Origin: Sulfurimonadaceae bacterium
GTDB taxonomy: Bacteria; Campylobacterota; Campylobacteria; Campylobacterales; Sulfurimonadaceae
DNA: 38,109 nt
Direction of reading: 5' to 3'
NCBI GenBank assembly: GCA_041571435.1
Contig: JBFFUI010000019.1
Span: 1 to 38,109 of the forward strand
Under the pieces are notes generated by a model. The model did no database searches. It saw only the letters and a program-made list of their open reading frames with translations, and was not told where the DNA came from. This document shows positions 1 through 28,941 of this stretch, piece by piece (position 1 is the first letter of the stretch; every line of letters begins with the position of its first letter). The position numbers and the translations under genes were made by a program.

Positions 1-17
1 ATAGGGGGGGGTGGGAC

Positions 18-410
18 ATGAAAAGATATAGGGACTGGGCAGTTTGGCTCTACATTGCTAACCTTTCACTTCTTGGGGTACACGAAATCGACTCAGCCTA
101 TTGGCATGAATGGGAAATGTTTCGTATGCCTGGAGGCATACAGCTGTTCCTCGTTCTTAACCTACTGCTCCTTTTTCTCCTAACCTACGGGCTCGTGCGA
201 GTTGCCCGTTGGCAGCCGGGCGCCAAGGTGCTCTCATTCGTCGTTGCCAGCACGGGAATATTCACCTTTCTTGTTCACACGCTTTTCTTGGTGATTGGGC
301 GTGACGAGTTTCGCTTGCCCATATCACTGATACTCCTGGGTGGAACCCTACTAGTTTCAATCGCCCAGATAGTCGTCGTAACCCGATGTGATAAGCCTGC
401 CGGGAAATGA
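18..410 (+). CDS. Small 4-TM membrane protein with HEIDSAYWHEW motif (resembles DUF6713, from memory); cassette gene
   Basis: 130 aa hydrophobic ORF, G-rich RBS, stop 3 nt before attC. Confidence 0.8.
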   Translation: MKRYRDWAVWLYIANLSLLGVHEIDSAYWHEWEMFRMPGGIQLFLVLNLLLLFLLTYGLVRVARWQPGAKVLSFVVASTGIFTFLVHTLFLVIGRDEFRLPISLILLGGTLLVSIAQIVVVTRCDKPAGK

Positions 411-413
411 GTC

Positions 414-477
414 GCCTAACAAGTCGCTTCAGCCGACGCAGGCCCTACGCCCGTGCGGCTGAGCTCCAGCGTTCTCA
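414..477 (+). repeat. attC site 1 (64 bp, GC-rich type)
   Basis: R'' GCCTAAC 414-420; GCTTCAGCCG pairs with CGGCTGAGC with one extra base; ends CCAGC-GTTCTCA (471-477). Confidence 0.85.
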
Positions 478-626
478 AATTCAGCCGCCACTCACCCGCG
501 GCCCGTTGTGTACAAAACAGGCTACCCTTCATCTAATTTTGTCTGGTTGTATGTTTTGTCCAAAACAGCTACAATTGAACAGCCCCTCACCGGTCGAGAT
601 TTTTTTATTGCCAAGGATAGGAAGTC

Positions 627-1481
627 GTGAAAACAATTTTCAGCATACTCGAAAACCGTACGCCGAAAACCATCACCAAGCTCTCATTCTTTTTGATCGT
701 GGTTTTGGGTGTCGTGCAGTTTATGGTAGGTGAAACCGTCAATATCGCTCCGCTCTATATTTTCCCGCCCCTCTTCAGCAGCTGGTACGGGTCGAGGACA
801 AGCGGTGTTTTGTCGGCTTTTTTGTCAACACTGGTCTTTGTCGTCATCGAAGCGTCTTTTGCCCGGGTTCCGCCGGCTTTTGACGGCCTGATGCTTTTTG
901 GTGCCCCCTATCTTGTCGCGTACGTCCTGCTGGCGATGCTCGTCATCAACTTCAGGGAGGTGCACCGCATAGAAGTGCATGCAGCCGATACCGACACGCT
1001 GACCGGCGTTCACAGCGCCAGAAGTTTTTATGCGGAACTCGCCAACGAGCTGCTACGTTCAAAACGATACGATCACGTCTTTTCATTGGCCTATATCGAT
1101 ATAGACAATTTCAAGAACATCAACGATTCGCTCGGGCACACCGCAGGGGACAGGCTGTTGAAAGAGGTGGCGGATTGCCTGGTGTCGTCGCTGAGGGCTA
1201 CCGACGTGATCGCGAGGCTGGGTGGGGACGAATATGCCTGCCTGCTGCCCGAGACGGCACAGGAAGAGGCAAAATCGGCGTTTTTAAAAGCCGCCGGTCT
1301 GTTGAAAAAAAGAATGAAAAAACATAAATGGGACGTGAGCTTCAGTATCGGGGTGGTCACCTTCGAGAATCTTCCGGAGGATATCAAAGAGGCGATCGAG
1401 ATCGCCGACAAACTGATGTATTCCGTCAAGAACGTAGCTAAAGACAATATCGCCTATCAGATGTACCAGGCAAACCTCTGA
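627..1481 (+). CDS. Membrane-bound diguanylate cyclase (GGDEF domain)
   Basis: N-terminal TM helices; DIDNFKNINDSLGH, RATD I-site, RLGGDEY. Confidence 0.92.
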   Translation: MKTIFSILENRTPKTITKLSFFLIVVLGVVQFMVGETVNIAPLYIFPPLFSSWYGSRTSGVLSAFLSTLVFVVIEASFARVPPAFDGLMLFGAPYLVAYVLLAMLVINFREVHRIEVHAADTDTLTGVHSARSFYAELANELLRSKRYDHVFSLAYIDIDNFKNINDSLGHTAGDRLLKEVADCLVSSLRATDVIARLGGDEYACLLPETAQEEAKSAFLKAAGLLKKRMKKHKWDVSFSIGVVTFENLPEDIKEAIEIADKLMYSVKNVAKDNIAYQMYQANL

Positions 1482-1529
1482 CAAAGCGGCTTTGCCCCGC
1501 ACGAGGCAGATCAAGAACAAGGAGTAGTT

Positions 1530-1985
1530 GTGAGTATCTCAAAATCTATCACCGAAAACATCAGCCGGACGGTCTACGGGATCATCAGTCTGTCACTCGG
1601 ACTTATCAGCCTCACCATGATCGGTTCCGCCCTCTACAATATCTGGGCTTCGATAAGCGAGCAAACACTGCTTACCAAGGCACTTCTCGACGCAGTCGGC
1701 TTCATTGTGATCGGGACAGCGGTTTTTGACGTCTCCAGATTCTTGATGGAGGAAGAAGTCTTCAAAATCCACGGCGAAGAGACGAGCATGAAACAGAGAA
1801 CGACGCTGATCAAATTTCTCATCATCATTATCCTCGCCGTCTCGCTCGAAGCGTTGGTATTCGTTTTTTCCGCTGCGAAAAAAGATGTCAGCTTGCTGGT
1901 CTACCCGACCTTTCTGATGTTGACCGCTGTTTTGCTGGTAGTCGGTTTGGGCATCTACCAGAAAATGACCCGGGAGGAACAGTGA
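1530..1985 (+). CDS. 4-TM membrane protein (PsiE-like topology, function unknown)
   Basis: AAGGAG RBS before GTG; four hydrophobic segments in 151 aa. Confidence 0.8.
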   Translation: MSISKSITENISRTVYGIISLSLGLISLTMIGSALYNIWASISEQTLLTKALLDAVGFIVIGTAVFDVSRFLMEEEVFKIHGEETSMKQRTTLIKFLIIIILAVSLEALVFVFSAAKKDVSLLVYPTFLMLTAVLLVVGLGIYQKMTREEQ

Positions 1986-2067
1986 TAATCGCTGTGAATG
2001 TTGTTGGCAGGCTATCAAAATTAAAAGTGTCACGTCAGCCATCCAGGCAAAGGATTTCACGTTTACT

Positions 2068-2139
2068 GCATAACACCCCAAAGGAGACCAATCAAAAAGC
2101 CACGGGCGGCTATATGACTGCTCATTTTAAACGTTGGGC
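2068..2139 (+). repeat. attC site 2 (72 bp, AT-rich family)
   Basis: R'' GCATAAC, inner GAGACCAATCAAAAAGCC...GGCTATATGACTGCTC imperfect palindrome, R' GTTGGGC. Confidence 0.88.
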
Positions 2140-2167
2140 AGAACAAATTCACTCTGAAAAACTATTG

Positions 2168-2173
2168 TATAAT
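2168..2173 (+). promoter_or_regulatory. Putative sigma70 -10 box inside cassette
   Basis: TATAAT ~30 nt upstream of ATG 2205 and its GAGGT RBS. Confidence 0.5.
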
Positions 2174-2204
2174 GAAATAATCCACATAGAAAAATGAGGT
2201 AGCT

Positions 2205-2915
2205 ATGACAGTTGACCAAAAAACAGTTACTAAAACTAGACCATCCCAATGGTTCAGTACAAGCATAATCTACATTTCCATACCCGCAATTCTACTGGTT
2301 TGCGGATGGGATCTCGGTTGGTGGCAAGCGTGGCTCTTTTTTGTGCTGATCGTTACGGCCGGCATAGGGGGACGCATATGGGCAGAACAGAGACATCCGG
2401 GGATTCTGGCTGAACGGTTTAAATATTCCAAGGCTCAAGGTATAAAATCCTGGGACAAAGTCATTGCCCCGTTGATGGCGTTCAGCCTCTCATTTCCACT
2501 TGTCATAGTCGCAGGCCTCGATCACCGTTTCGCATGGTCTCCACACTTGCCGATCTGGATGAATCTGCTCGGCTTTGTTCTGATCGCATTCGGATATGCC
2601 TTCGCCTCATGGGCCTTGATAGAGAATCGCTTCTTTTCCACGTTTGTACGTATCCAGAAAGAGCGTGAACATGAAGTGTGCAGTAGCGGTCCTTACGCAA
2701 TAGTACGGCATCCGGGCTACGCCGGGAATATGTTGGCCCTTCTAGGTATTGTCCTTGCTTTAGGTTCCGTCTGGACATTGATTCCGGTGCTCATGGCCAT
2801 AATAATTGCCGTGACAAGAACGGAACTGGAAGACAGAACCCTTCAAGAAGAGTTGAGAGGGTACAAAGAGTATGTACAAAAGGTACGATATAGATGGATT
2901 CCTGGGATATATTGA
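2205..2915 (+). CDS. Isoprenylcysteine carboxyl methyltransferase (ICMT/PEMT) family membrane protein; cassette gene
   Basis: Multi-TM; GPYAIVRHPGYAG, ED..L..EL.GY.EY...VRYRWIPGIY C-terminal motifs. Confidence 0.9.
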   Translation: MTVDQKTVTKTRPSQWFSTSIIYISIPAILLVCGWDLGWWQAWLFFVLIVTAGIGGRIWAEQRHPGILAERFKYSKAQGIKSWDKVIAPLMAFSLSFPLVIVAGLDHRFAWSPHLPIWMNLLGFVLIAFGYAFASWALIENRFFSTFVRIQKEREHEVCSSGPYAIVRHPGYAGNMLALLGIVLALGSVWTLIPVLMAIIIAVTRTELEDRTLQEELRGYKEYVQKVRYRWIPGIY

Positions 2916-2938
2916 TTTGAAAACATACTTATCAAGCT

Positions 2939-2972
2939 GTCCAACCAACCATATGAGCCCTATCAAAAAGCC
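2939..2972 (+). repeat. Truncated attC (left half only)
   Basis: GTCCAAC-CAACC-ATATGAGCCC-TATCAAAAAG-CC aligns without gaps to the first 34 nt of attC2 and attC3, then runs straight into ATG 2973. Confidence 0.8.
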
Positions 2973-3431
2973 ATGAAAAAACTTCTACCCATCTTACTGA
3001 TTATTATTGCTGTTATTGCTTACGCAGAAGAAGATTGTATATTTGATGAATCTACCTATATGAAATTTATCAAAGAGTACAGTGCAGAAAATAAAAACGC
3101 AAAAATCGGGCCTAATGGAAGAACACTCCTAATCAATAGGAATAATGAAGAGATCACCGTTCAAGGGGGTGGTTGCATCCACCTAGGGGTGGCCATCGAA
3201 TCAAGAACAAACCAGAACTATTCCGAGGAACAGTTTTTGCAAAAAGTGCTCAGTTTGTCCATCGAATTCGGCGACTGGTTAATAAACACCGAAGCATTGA
3301 AAGAATCTATTGAAAAAGGAAAATTCCAGAAAATAGATGGTGGTTATTTTATTGACGTTGATGCTATGACGGTGTTTGAAGCATCCTGCGACGATCAAGG
3401 TAAGATCAATGTCGATTTTTATATTAATTAA
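2973..3431 (+). CDS. Secreted hypothetical protein; cassette gene
   Basis: Signal peptide MKKLLPILLIIIAVIAYA; AT-rich; stop 6 nt before attC3. Confidence 0.82.
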   Translation: MKKLLPILLIIIAVIAYAEEDCIFDESTYMKFIKEYSAENKNAKIGPNGRTLLINRNNEEITVQGGGCIHLGVAIESRTNQNYSEEQFLQKVLSLSIEFGDWLINTEALKESIEKGKFQKIDGGYFIDVDAMTVFEASCDDQGKINVDFYIN

Positions 3432-3437
3432 AAGGGC

Positions 3438-3509
3438 GATCAACAAACTAAAGAAGCCCAATCAAAAACCCGCAGGCGGCTTTTTGATTGCTCATTTTAA
3501 ACGTTAATA
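3438..3509 (+). repeat. attC site 3 (72 bp, same family as attC2)
   Basis: R'' GATCAAC, CAATCAAAAA..CCGC..GCGG..TTTTTGATTG palindrome, CTCATTTTAAAC-GTTAATA. Confidence 0.88.
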
Positions 3510-3643
3510 CCCAATGTTACAAATCAAGTATCACGAAGAAAAAAGTCTATAATGTGCTAAAGTGTATAGTTGTAATGTAATGAAGAGTGCCACATCGCAC
3601 TTTTTTCTTCTAATTGAAATCTATAGGATTGGGAAGAAGACCA

Positions 3644-4336
3644 ATGTCAGAGACAGAAACAGAGCAAAGCATCAAGATCACAAAGAACGGCCCCCTCATA
3701 GTCAGAGGCCGTGTCCCGCTCTCCATACAGACGATCGGCGTCAACAGTGAAGGCGAAGCGGTCGAATGGATAGAGGGCGAGTGCTACCCGCTGAAGGAGA
3801 CCTATAGGCTCTGCCGATGCGGGAAGTCGAAGAGACACCCCTTCTGCGACGGGACGCACGCGAAAAGCGGTTTCGACGGCACGGAAACGGCTGACCGTTC
3901 GCCCGTTCTGGAACGTTCAAAGAGATATGACGGGCCGGATATAACATTGACCGACGCCAAAAGCCTCTGCGCCCTGGCCCGTTTCTGCAACCCGCACGGC
4001 GGGGTCTGGAACATGGTGACCATGTCGAACGACCCTGAAATAAAGCCGGTCTTTTTGCAAGAGGTGTGGGACTGCCCTGCCGGGCGGTTGGTTGCCTGGG
4101 ACAAGAAAACGGGAGAAGCCATCGAGCCGCATTTCGAGCCGTCCATTGTCCTCATCGAAGACCCGCATAAAAAGTGCAGCGGCCCCATATGGGTGCGGGG
4201 CGGCATTCCCGTCATCGGTGCCGACGGGACGCCTTACGAAGTACGAAACCGTGTCACACTCTGCCGGTGCGGGGCATCCGAGAACAAACCTTTCTGCAAC
4301 GGGAAGCATATGTTTACCCATTTCAAAGCGACATAA
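3644..4336 (+). CDS. CDGSH iron-sulfur protein (two CDGSH-type motifs flanking a ferredoxin-like Fer4_19-type segment)
   Basis: LCRCGKSKRHPFCDGTH and LCRCGASENKPFCNGKH; central C..ARFC...CPAGRL; ATG 3644 preferred over TTG 3614. Confidence 0.9.
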   Translation: MSETETEQSIKITKNGPLIVRGRVPLSIQTIGVNSEGEAVEWIEGECYPLKETYRLCRCGKSKRHPFCDGTHAKSGFDGTETADRSPVLERSKRYDGPDITLTDAKSLCALARFCNPHGGVWNMVTMSNDPEIKPVFLQEVWDCPAGRLVAWDKKTGEAIEPHFEPSIVLIEDPHKKCSGPIWVRGGIPVIGADGTPYEVRNRVTLCRCGASENKPFCNGKHMFTHFKAT

Positions 4337-4357
4337 GCATACCAAGGGGTGAAATCA

Positions 4358-4606
4358 ATGATCAAGTTACTTCATTTTAATACCATAGTAGGCACATTCT
4401 ATATCGTAAAAGCTACTGACGGCAGTTATCATCCCTATTTTGATGAGCACGACCTGGGCAGTTATCCGACTATTGTCGATGCCATTGAGGGTGTCGCGTA
4501 CGACACGTCTCTGGAACTGATCCATCCGGAGATGGGTGACCCGCTTGAGCCTACTGACCTGGGCATTCCTGATGACATAAGCGGTTGGCGTCCCGTTGAT
4601 GACTAA
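4358..4606 (+). CDS. Small acidic hypothetical protein
   Basis: GGGGTG RBS before ATG 4358; 82 aa, 21 nt after the CDGSH gene. Confidence 0.7.
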   Translation: MIKLLHFNTIVGTFYIVKATDGSYHPYFDEHDLGSYPTIVDAIEGVAYDTSLELIHPEMGDPLEPTDLGIPDDISGWRPVDD

Positions 4607-4664
4607 AGGGTCCCTCTAAACCTTTCAACGCTTTTAAGGCAGCCCCATCATAGCAGGAGGAGGC

Positions 4665-5000
4665 TCAGACTCTGGAAAGCAGGACGATGATAAACGGTAC
4701 AGGACGTTTTGGTGCGCCTGCCGCTTCAAAGACGTCACAAAACGTAGTGGCGATAGTTCTCATCATATCTTTGATGTATTCATGTTCGAACACTTCATCA
4801 AGAATTTCCATCGTTTTGTCGAGAACAGATTCAAATACGTTGGGATTGTCACGGTGAACTTCGTAAGCGGCGATGTTTTTGTCAAAACTGCAGGCGTGGT
4901 GAAAGATGTTGAAGTTCTGTTCGATCTCTTCATCGCTCAAGTCATTAAGCAGATTGTATTCGCGGACAAATTTAATGACCTCGTGTAGTTTGCAGACCAT
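4665..5000 (-). CDS. Hypothetical protein (111 aa)
   Basis: AAGGA RBS before ATG at 5000; protein-like helical composition. Confidence 0.7.
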   Translation of the reverse strand: MVCKLHEVIKFVREYNLLNDLSDEEIEQNFNIFHHACSFDKNIAAYEVHRDNPNVFESVLDKTMEILDEVFEHEYIKDMMRTIATTFCDVFEAAGAPKRPVPFIIVLLSRV

Positions 5001-5157
5001 AGTATTCCTTTTGTATTGTTTCTGGATAATATGCATAATCTGTGCAACATAGAACCTGTTCTACAAATATAGCTATGTCACAGTGTGTACATCTACCCAT
5101 TCATACTCCGGTATATTATTTCGATCTGCCATATATTTGGCATCTTTTTCTACACTT

Positions 5158-5166
5158 TGCTACAAT
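5158..5166 (+). promoter_or_regulatory. Extended -10 promoter for radA
   Basis: TGcTACAAT ~100 nt upstream of radA. Confidence 0.55.
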
Positions 5167-5263
5167 CATAGAACATTTCACTAAGGCATACGATTGAAGA
5201 GATTTTCCACCCTACCCTCATACATCAAAACCCTACCGTCAGAGTGCGCACACGAGGTGAAGA

Positions 5264-6610
5264 ATGGCTAAGAAAAAAGTTCTCTTCGAATGCCAGCACT
5301 GCGGTCTGACCTCGCCCAAATGGATGGGAAAATGTACCAACTGCGGGGCATGGGACTCCATGGTAGAGCTAAGTGAACAACAGCAGGAGATCGTCAAACT
5401 CACCTCCTCTTCACCGACAGGCAAGAGTAAAGCGCAGGCCATCAAAGATGTCACCAATACAGAGGTGTCCCGCTTTACAAGTAATGACATCGAACTCGAC
5501 ATGGTTCTCGGCGGCGGCGTCGTGCCCGGTTCACTGACGCTCATCGGCGGCAGTCCCGGGGTCGGAAAGTCGACACTGCTTCTCAAGATCGGCGCCAACA
5601 TCGCCAACGCCGGTAAAAACACCCTCTACGTCACCGGTGAGGAGTCGGAAGGTCAGGTCAAACTCCGGGCAGACCGTCTCAATGCCACAACAGAGAACCT
5701 CTACCTTCTCAGTGAAATACGGCTCGAACAGGTCCTTTTTGAGCTTGAACAGCGTGATTACGAGTTTCTGATCATCGACTCCATCCAGACCATGTACTCC
5801 GAGAACATCACCTCCGCACCGGGTTCCGTAACCCAGGTGCGCCAGATCACCTTCGATCTGATGCGCATTGCCAAGGAGCGGGGTATCGCGATCTTTATCA
5901 TCGGGCATATCACCAAAGAGGGGTCCATCGCCGGACCGCGTGTCCTGGAGCACATGGTGGACACGGTACTCTATTTTGAAGGGGACAGCTCTCAGGAGCT
6001 GCGCATTCTTCGCGGCTTCAAGAACCGTTTCGGTCCGACCAACGAGATCGGCGTCTTCGAGATGCGCAACGAAGGGCTTGTCTCGGCCAAAGACATCTCC
6101 TCGCGCTTTTTCAACCAGAGCAAAGCACAACCCGGTTCGGCACTGACTGTGGTCATGGAGGGGTCACGCCCTCTCATCCTAGAGGTTCAGGCTCTTGTCA
6201 GCGATTCACACTCGCCAAATGCCAAACGCCAGGCGACAGGGTTTGACAACAACCGTCTCAACATGCTGCTGGCCCTGCTTGAACGAAAACTGGAGATCCC
6301 GCTTAACGGGTATGATGTCTTCATCAACATCGCCGGCGGCATCAAGATCAACGAGACCTCTGCCGACCTCGCCATCCTGGCTGCCATCATCAGCTCGTTC
6401 AGAGACCGCACCATCTCAAAAGAGACGGTCTTCATCGGCGAGGTCTCGCTCGTCGGTGACATCAGAGAGGTCTTCCAGGTCGACACCCGACTGCGCGAAC
6501 TGCAGATGCACAACATCAACAAAGTCCTTCTTGCCAAAAAACCGAAAGATCTGCACGGTGTCAAATGCTACGAAGTCGACGAGGTCACCAAACTGATCGA
6601 TTGGATGTGA
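5264..6610 (+). CDS. radA: DNA repair protein RadA/Sms
   Basis: C4 zinc finger CQHCG..KWMGKCTNC, Walker A GSPGVGKST, KNRFG motif, Lon-like C-terminus. Confidence 0.98.
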   Translation: MAKKKVLFECQHCGLTSPKWMGKCTNCGAWDSMVELSEQQQEIVKLTSSSPTGKSKAQAIKDVTNTEVSRFTSNDIELDMVLGGGVVPGSLTLIGGSPGVGKSTLLLKIGANIANAGKNTLYVTGEESEGQVKLRADRLNATTENLYLLSEIRLEQVLFELEQRDYEFLIIDSIQTMYSENITSAPGSVTQVRQITFDLMRIAKERGIAIFIIGHITKEGSIAGPRVLEHMVDTVLYFEGDSSQELRILRGFKNRFGPTNEIGVFEMRNEGLVSAKDISSRFFNQSKAQPGSALTVVMEGSRPLILEVQALVSDSHSPNAKRQATGFDNNRLNMLLALLERKLEIPLNGYDVFINIAGGIKINETSADLAILAAIISSFRDRTISKETVFIGEVSLVGDIREVFQVDTRLRELQMHNINKVLLAKKPKDLHGVKCYEVDEVTKLIDWM

Positions 6611-6648
6611 GCTCGCCGAAAAGCCAACTGCTTGGCTTTTCGGCGAGC
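6611..6648. repeat. Perfect 17-bp inverted repeat (REP-like element or terminator hairpin)
   Basis: GCTCGCCGAAAAGCCAA-ctgc-TTGGCTTTTCGGCGAGC directly after the radA stop. Confidence 0.85.
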
Positions 6649-6778
6649 GCAGTTATCATACATCTCCAAAAGGTGTTCTACAGCAGACTCGTCCCCGCCT
6701 CTGGAGCAGATCACAAAATGATTACTAAACAGCGCTCCTCTTAAGCATATAAAAAGTTTAACACTATAATATTCATCT

Positions 6779-27831: not shown

Positions 27832-28941
27832 ATGTTTCGTGTTGCATTTGTAGCAGTCAGTTTGATCGTCTCTGTATGGGCCGCGCCCACGCTTCAGACA
27901 ATGAAAAAAGAGCACCGCGTTGCCATCGTCGTCGGTAACGGTAATTATGATGAGAATGCAATCGACCACGCAGTGGCGAATGCACGCAACGTAAAAAAGC
28001 TTCTGGAAGATAACGGATTTTACGTCTACTACGGTGAGAACCTGGACAAGCGCAACTTTGTGCGTCTGCTTAGAAAATTCAACAAGAACCTGCACCCCAA
28101 CGGTATCGGCCTTGTCTACTACTGTGGACATTCGGTGCAGACAAAGGGCAAAAACTACCTTCTCCCCGTAGATAACGGCATATTAAATGAATCCATGATC
28201 GCCCGTAAAAGCATCTCTCTCAACTCCATCTACAGCAATATGGATGAGAGCTATGACCGTCTCAATATCGTCGTTTTGGACACCGCTTACGATGCCCCCT
28301 TTGGCACACTTTTTACACCGAAGAAAAAAGGGCTGGCCAAGATCAAGTCCCCCAAAGCCCAAGTGACGTTTATGGCCACCCCTCCCGGCACTTCCAACAG
28401 CTCAACAACCTTCACAAAAGATTTTTTACAACTTGCCAAAGAGAAAGGGGTTGAGTTAACAGCACTGAAAAGCAAGCTGATACAGATGCGTCAGCCCAAA
28501 CCACAGGTAAATATCGTCAGAAATCAGCCCTTTTACTTCGTACTCCCGGACCACTTGCCAACTGCCGATGAACTGGCCTACAGTAAGATCCAAAGCAGTG
28601 ACACCAAAAGTGCGCTGGAAAAATTTATCAACACCTATCCAAAAAGCCAATTTACCCCAAAAGTCCGGGCACGGTTGGATGCAATAACGCAACGGGAGTT
28701 GGAGGCCCAGGCCGCCGAAGCGACACGTCTGGTAAAAGAGAGAGAGGAAAAAGCAGCCAAGGCGAAAGCAGCTGCAGACAAAGAGTCTGAAGCCAAAATC
28801 GTACAAGAGGGTGAAGCAGCGAAAAAAGCGGCTGAAGAGAAAAATGACATATCCTTTATTCTCACAAACCCGGAAGATGTCGTCAAAACCAGCCCCGTCA
28901 AGCCCAAAGAGGGTGAAGAGCGTCAAATCCACTTAGAGTAG
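27832..28941 (+). CDS. Secreted caspase-family (peptidase C14) protein, catalytic Cys absent
   Basis: RVAIVVGNGNY, YYCGHS, NYLLPVD, IVVLDTAY; AGGAG RBS. Confidence 0.9.
   Translation: MFRVAFVAVSLIVSVWAAPTLQTMKKEHRVAIVVGNGNYDENAIDHAVANARNVKKLLEDNGFYVYYGENLDKRNFVRLLRKFNKNLHPNGIGLVYYCGHSVQTKGKNYLLPVDNGILNESMIARKSISLNSIYSNMDESYDRLNIVVLDTAYDAPFGTLFTPKKKGLAKIKSPKAQVTFMATPPGTSNSSTTFTKDFLQLAKEKGVELTALKSKLIQMRQPKPQVNIVRNQPFYFVLPDHLPTADELAYSKIQSSDTKSALEKFINTYPKSQFTPKVRARLDAITQRELEAQAAEATRLVKEREEKAAKAKAAADKESEAKIVQEGEAAKKAAEEKNDISFILTNPEDVVKTSPVKPKEGEERQIHLE

Follow-up and report, generated by a model that had tools for sequence, protein, structure and literature searches.

An integron tail at the start of a Sulfurimonadaceae contig, and arrays elsewhere in the genome that keep attI-like heads without an integrase gene

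The stretch of DNA analysed here, called the window throughout, covers 38,109 nt from the start of contig C19 in the assembly of a Sulfurimonadaceae bacterium (GCA_041571435.1, hereafter G000; 66 contigs, 2.16 Mb). Its first 3,509 nt are very probably the distal end of a sedentary chromosomal integron array. Other arrays of this genome have attC sites of the same family, and all of them were likely filled by the same kind of integrase. What we observe are the attC sites and cassette junctions of the window, its synteny with related genomes, the array upstream of base 1, five to six other attI-like heads in G000 that lack an integrase gene (intI), and differences between the cassettes behind such heads. 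Positions 1–3509 hold five co-oriented open reading frames (ORFs), and the features of the array and its distal flank are as follows.

1–413, + strand: body of cassette 1, with the ORF of a DUF6713 membrane protein at 18–410 (130 aa; Pfam PF20460)
414–477, + strand: attC1, 64 nt, GC 0.66, from structure heuristics and folding; begins 3 nt past the stop codon
478–504, + strand: 27-nt remnant, 70% like 428–454
505–2067, + strand: likely a two-ORF cassette, with a membrane GGDEF protein (627–1481) and a 151-aa membrane protein (1530–1985)
2068–2139, + strand: attC2, a 72-nt family site with stem mismatches
2205–2915, + strand: gene of an ICMT/PEMT-family methyltransferase (236 aa; Pfam), in a cassette that starts at the crossover at 2133
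2939–2972, + strand: half attC, left arm only, abutting the start codon of the next ORF
2973–3431, + strand: 152-aa ORF, GC 0.37, a cassette gene elsewhere
3438–3509, + strand: attC3, 72 nt, the terminal site of the array
3513–5120, no strand assigned: non-cassette block with a CDGSH protein (3644–4336) and two small ORFs, no family attC
5264–6610, + strand: radA (TIGR00416; synteny), the gene that bounds the integron locus distally and is conserved there

A first-pass annotation, made from the letters of the window alone, had described three full attC-like palindromes and one half site, and the coordinates agree with it: all four are + strand sites that follow a co-oriented ORF at once or after a short distance. 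As it had also stated, attC2 and attC3 are of equal length and identical at 54 of 72 positions, their longest shared run being 17 nt (at 2119 and 3489). Scored with a covariance model that was trained on 27 attC sites from relatives only, and none from G000, attC2 reaches 65.7 bits (E 1e-14) and attC3 80.3 bits (E 1.5e-18), both on the bottom strand; the 38-kb window yields two more matches, both of them echoes of these sites on the opposite strand. On the bottom strand the end core triplets of both sites pair, with an unpaired spacer and an inner stem that carries extrahelical bases. Folding alone is weak evidence for attC1 and attC2, where shuffled sequences folded as well in 9 and 13 of 200 cases, respectively, compared to 0 of 200 for attC3. 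The family model leaves attC1 unmatched; this site is not of the 72-nt family, and its cassette likely came from another lineage. The homogeneity of the attC family, as first claimed, thus holds for attC2, attC3 and the relatives, and fails for attC1, the type of which had gone unnoticed. Rfam gave no matches in the window, and no tRNA was found in it. A genome-wide search for attC sites by structure heuristic returned 105 matches, mostly noise, and profiles were used instead.

A genuine cassette shows complementarity between the left box of its own attC and the letters following the upstream crossover. For cassette 1 this could be seen in a contig from run X2, whose study is a possible source of the G000 assembly. 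This contig runs 36 nt past base 1 and there has a family attC's right end; its right box and the left box of attC1 are complementary at 7 of 7 letters, and the 5' crossover of the cassette lies about 12 nt upstream of base 1. With such a fit, the array continues upstream of base 1, and the contig broke at a repeat; no other contig end in the G000 assembly overlaps base 1. The methyltransferase cassette fits as well, the left box of the half site matching the crossover at 2133 at 3 of 4 letters plus one transition. For the GGDEF unit, the left box of attC2 fits a junction at 505 (2 of 4 exact and two transitions) better than one at 471 (only 1 of 4), and contigs from runs X3 and X5, which belong to two studies, depart from the window sequence at 504 (runs with small word shares were left out). 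Therefore this unit likely begins at 505, a boundary that was likewise overlooked before, and the 27 nt ahead of it are likely what is left of a cassette or attC that was deleted. At the other end, attC3 matches the last attC before radA in G005 through position 3512 (93% over 71 nt).

The array of the window is the distal end of an integron that is conserved in the genus, in the order ftsY-intI-attI-array-radA. ftsY, a divergent intI, attI, the array and radA lie on one contig in G003, which is closed, and in G005, while in G002, the closest relative of G000 (RadA 99%, FtsY 97%), ftsY, intI and the array share a contig and radA is on another. G004 carries ftsY, a 19-codon intI stub, attI, the array and radA, and G006 the same order without any stub. 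This puts the array between ftsY and radA in G003, G004, G005 and G006, and partly so in G002 and G009. At this slot intI is intact, catalytic residues included, and heads the array together with attI in G002, G003 and G005. In G000, contig C31 ends within ftsY (364 of ~374 aa) and the window begins at a contig edge, which places the intI slot in the unassembled gap between C31 and C19. The context is one of chromosomal core genes, with no plasmid or transposon setting as a mobile resistance integron would have. This synteny, together with the terminal position of attC3, supports the earlier description of a distal, chromosomal integron cassette array in a member of the Campylobacterota. The stub of G004 lies between ftsY and attI on its contig C26 (L044:5520–5620), and the other intI of that genome (C14) is broken by frameshifts.

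No integrase gene is in view in the window, as noted from the start, or in the G000 assembly, where tblastn with 14 IntI proteins of relatives gave no fragment. The two tyrosine recombinases of G000 were rejected as IntI: they are Xer-like, score 58 bits against a cut-off of 265, and are without the IntI insertion. IntI matches occur in 8 of 15 genus genomes and in 19 of the 61 genomes searched. The first-pass annotation took the array for clustered attC sites without an integron-integrase (CALIN), and for the present state of G000 we consider the chances to be about even that this is literally so: intI would have been deleted from the ftsY-radA slot, leaving the genome without an integrase and all its arrays frozen and decaying. 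This is compatible with an integron tail and concerns the present state only. In its favor, no IntI is found in an assembly rated 100% complete, G004 and G006 have lost intI at the same slot, none was found in G009, and decayed sites occur at C44, at C7 and in the window. Against it, the slot is unassembled and the completeness rating reflects marker genes only, G002 keeps an intact intI there, and four family sites of G000 score 84–96 bits. The CALIN status of the window locus is therefore unproven: at least two attC sites are present in an assembly without intI, yet the array runs off its contig toward the intI slot, and relatives show both states. Upstream of base 1, a family attC end came to light in the run X2 contig, and intI is not in the assembly.

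The attC family is not confined to this array, contrary to the first claim that the array has a family of its own. In G000, 11 distinct family sites are spread over seven loci on six contigs (17 matches, six of them echoes), and the family occurs in 11 of 16 genus genomes. The main array of G003 holds about 20 of these sites, with fewer elsewhere. In the species collection 113 stretches carry a family attC; of the 80 listed, 75 bear a Campylobacterota label, in most cases Sulfurimonadaceae, with Sulfurovum, Sulfurospirillum, Sulfuricurvum and Arcobacter among the rest. Five of the 80 listed loci, all with the exact attC core, bear labels from outside the phylum (L067–L069, L103 and L108; an archaeal bin, Smithella, Prosthecochloris), for which misbinning or cassette transfer suggest themselves. 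One 41-nt family attC of G000 (C38:19999–20039) has kept both ends and lost its central stem.

Several of the G000 arrays start with an attI-like head and no intI, which the first-pass annotation had not noticed. An attI profile, made from the heads of 14 intI-linked arrays in relatives and consisting of a -10-like box, a conserved box and the crossover triplet, finds five sites in G000 (C7, C44, C1, C12 and C46) at 22.7–34.7 bits, where the next match scores 17.2 and the reversed genome reaches at most 16.0. BLAST adds a sixth head, on C48, and there is no intI at any of them. Across 16 genus genomes the model gives at least 4–10 matches in nine of the ten near-complete ones and at least one in the remaining one, for 0–2 intI genes; these counts are lower bounds, with 150 candidates scored per genome and some training sites included. 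In the closed G003, with a single intI, a correctly oriented attI head stands at five of six outlying attC places. No attI head was found for the single sites at C7:6.8 kb in G000 and at 1.117 Mb in G003. AttI-like matches, counted regardless of arrays, occur in 22 of 41 genomes of the family with up to 12 per genome, and G065 and G066, from other genera of the family, have 12 and 6. The region G000:C7:6826–14990 has a flank orthologous to the second intI locus of G002; neither intI nor attI was found in it, and all that follows downstream is a full attC and a partial one. A -10-like motif at 3552–3571 of the window was rejected as attI (1.9 bits), a promoter scan of the window stayed at chance level (7 against 7.2), and a typed attI pattern with wrong spacing, which missed known sites and came near its reversed control, was discarded.

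We compared 31 intI-less heads from G000, G002, G003, G004 and G006, leaving out partial or weak attI matches (L198, L207, L216, L219 and a weak match within the main array of G003) from this count and from the 25 heads discussed below. Aligned to the intI-attI spacer of complete integrons, 25 of the 31 match over at least 85 nt, four over less and two not at all; one retains an intI stub. Among heads from unrelated loci, identity reaches 44/45. The intI-less head beside truD is shared by four genomes, which align at 77–93% over 1.5–1.8 kb, gapless from the core gene to the crossover, and diverge directly after it. Other orthologous heads lie at a tRNA cluster (96% over 1,474 nt), at C48 of G000 with its counterpart in G002 (91%) and at acnB (88%), and three more pairs have gaps in their flanks. 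Downstream of these orthologous heads no shared match above 90 nt was found in the first 1.5 kb, so their first cassettes differ. Because orthologous heads carry different first cassettes and diverge exactly at the crossover, IntI appears to have acted in trans on the satellite attI sites. One and the same locus can also occur with or without intI, as at ftsY-radA and at the shikimate-kinase locus, where G010 has intI and G002 and G004 have the head only. The spacer upstream of attI at truD (L228:480–840) shows 87% column identity over the four genomes, more than expected without intI, and it contains short inverted motifs that also lie upstream of intact intI genes; a regulator site in the intI-attI spacer is possible.

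How could such a layout come about? IntI would recombine the folded strand of an attC with attI and so add circular cassettes at the head of an array. Insertion at the head implies that the cassettes of the window would be the oldest of theirs, and these distal cassettes seem to be decaying, as the stem mismatches of attC2, the 27-nt remnant and a deletion that fused two cassettes would suggest. Satellite platforms may be whole integrons that took up new loci, where intI was lost and attI with the promoter region was kept, and at which an IntI encoded elsewhere could have gone on inserting or excising cassettes. We somewhat favor the view that the genus has a distributed integron, in which each chromosome would carry roughly 5–10 pads of attI plus promoter at fixed core-gene loci (truD, acnB, the tRNA cluster, shikimate kinase and the htpG region), without an intI of their own and served by one integrase in trans; the window would be the tail of the locus that usually keeps the integrase.

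Several points weigh against this reading and, in part, against the integron tail itself. attI was assigned by position and conservation, recombination not having been assayed. In its favor, first junctions are fully complementary (4 of 4 variable letters) at 14 of the 25 intI-less heads with an attC in the fetched stretch, a count that has no chance level beside it; at 11 of the 25 they are not, three of these reaching 3 of 4, but the models passed over some first attCs, and some heads have decayed. With an intI stub at only one of the 31 heads, loss of intI is shown at two loci only. The join of C31 and C19 rests on synteny and is not seen in sequence, and all genomes compared are drafts except G003. 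Covariation in the attC family alignment supports the structure of the sites, with two-sided changes in 11 of 21 pairs and 91% of cells paired against 35–55% with partners slid, but it was counted in related sequences from which the structure itself was named, and does not amount to a probability.

The strongest competitor of the distributed integron, which we nonetheless regard as rather unlikely, is that the satellites are relics: intI would have been lost in each lineage after the cassettes had diverged, or homologous recombination would have spread an intI-less head across different arrays, with no IntI acting in trans. Two genomes do have two intI genes at different loci, the 200–330 nt conserved upstream of attI could serve as homology, and this DNA may be conserved as the promoter of a divergent core gene. 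However, at truD the gapless alignment up to the crossover makes one shared loss simpler than four identical ones, and a satellite of G003 has four near-consensus attCs with all four junctions fully complementary. A further alternative, quite improbable in our view, is insertion at secondary genomic sites (attG), in which the outlying cassettes or the window array would have landed beside resident promoters and the heads would be mere promoters. Such insertion has been documented (10.1101/2022.09.11.507474), the head motif contains a -10-like box, and the two single sites named above are headless. The alignment of most heads with the intI-attI spacer largely refutes attG at headed loci, and the near-identity of heads from unrelated loci and the presence of intI at the window locus in relatives also speak against it; the headless single sites may still have arisen in this way. 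That the 72-mer is merely an intergenic terminator or an element like repetitive extragenic palindromes, as its GC hairpin with T-runs, once listed as terminator-like, might suggest, can be dismissed, since it fills arrays beside intI in relatives, always follows cassette ORFs, is strand-asymmetric and forms complementary junctions along the arrays, and the proviso of the first-pass annotation that it might be a generic repeat thereby falls away.

As for the cargo of the window, the cassette at 505–2067 was not found in 15 genus relatives, and the look-alikes of its 151-aa ORF are all unnamed. Arrays of G003, G004 and G009 contain the methyltransferase cassette too, there with a full attC (76–87% DNA identity), and the half site resembles the left arm of that attC at 28 of 34 positions in two of these three relatives and at 20 of 34 in the third. 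The half site is also present in the related strain of run X5. A deletion would have taken the right arm of the methyltransferase attC and a few leader letters of the next cassette, and we infer that, joined at the half site, the two cassettes now make up a single unit flanked by attC2 and attC3. Across the half site (2913–2975), the methyltransferase stop codon and the next ORF share a reading frame (open over 171 aa), and a related strain preserves this frame through two compensating indels. No ribosome-binding site is evident for the 152-aa ORF, whose relatives likewise start only ~8 nt past their crossover; translational coupling from the methyltransferase to this ORF is possible. It gave no match in Pfam, NCBIfam or PADLOC, and its relatives, at 73–74% on two metagenome contigs, lie between other attC-like sites. 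These are of another attC type (L225:1950–2030 and L226:1613–1700) than the family attC at 3438–3509, which suggests that the attC was replaced when the gene entered this lineage. The absence of recognisable resistance genes, as first reported, stands for the five cassette ORFs in Pfam and NCBIfam, no dedicated resistance database having been run, and PADLOC recognised no defence genes (0 of 8 proteins).

Beyond attC3, the block at 3513–5120, which precedes the radA promoter, is missing between the last attC and radA in G003 and G005, with 4343–5283 held in common with G002. A strong hairpin directly follows radA (6608–6651), and the DNA 3' of radA in relatives matches contigs C24 and C3 of G000, perhaps as a dispersed repeat. 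Further along, a caspase-domain (PF00656) protein is encoded at 27832–28941 beside an AT-rich stretch, with no family attC nearby.

Integrons are already known in the Campylobacterota (PMC8618304). With sedentary chromosomal integrons as these have been defined (PMC8618304, PMC4889954), the locus shares its fixed core-gene site, unrelated ORFs of unknown function, a homogeneous attC family and, in relatives, a divergent intI and attI. It differs in that the arrays are short, intI was repeatedly lost, and the attC family occurs at many loci across the phylum; moreover, intI and attI of G000 are unassembled here, and attC1 is an exception to the homogeneity. From mobile resistance integrons it is set apart by its core-gene context, the lack of resistance families and its homogeneous attC family. 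CALINs are defined regardless of attI, which cannot be searched for in most integrons, and split arrays are considered cut off from the cassette promoter Pc (Cury et al. 2016, PMC4889954). By having at least two attC sites without nearby intI, the window contig and the satellites would be called CALINs or single sites by a program, and CALINs can be used in trans (PMC9668308). The satellites, in contrast, still have attI with the promoter region ahead of it, and their first cassettes change. A further likeness is with Xanthomonas, where the main integron lies beside a core gene, intI is frequently lost and extra arrays occupy conserved loci across species (10.1101/2025.06.18.660453); we found no attI heads or cassette turnover described for those loci, and the supplements of that study may bear on this. 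Single attC sites lacking integron-integrase (SALINs) and attG insertions share with our loci that cassettes outside the main integron were placed by an IntI encoded elsewhere (10.1101/2022.09.11.507474). However, attG is unlike attI, whereas the targets here are attI homologues with 85–300 nt of intI-attI spacer, and the window locus has the platform in relatives. In the literature searched, neither multiple intI-less platforms that retain attI nor the integron of this lineage were found described; most subscription papers lay outside the search, and novelty is thus unproven.

By itself, the window is an ordinary integron tail. Its case is a warning that a CALIN call made at a contig edge may be an artefact of assembly. 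The arrays as a whole bear on the open question of where the many integrase-less arrays come from and how active they are: most of those studied here retain attI, probably descend from whole platforms and appear still to change cassettes. The analysis also supplies an attI profile for the phylum, of which we found none in print. If the genus does have a distributed integron, each pad would be an extra, strongly expressed first position, and several cassettes could be expressed at once and moved between loci.

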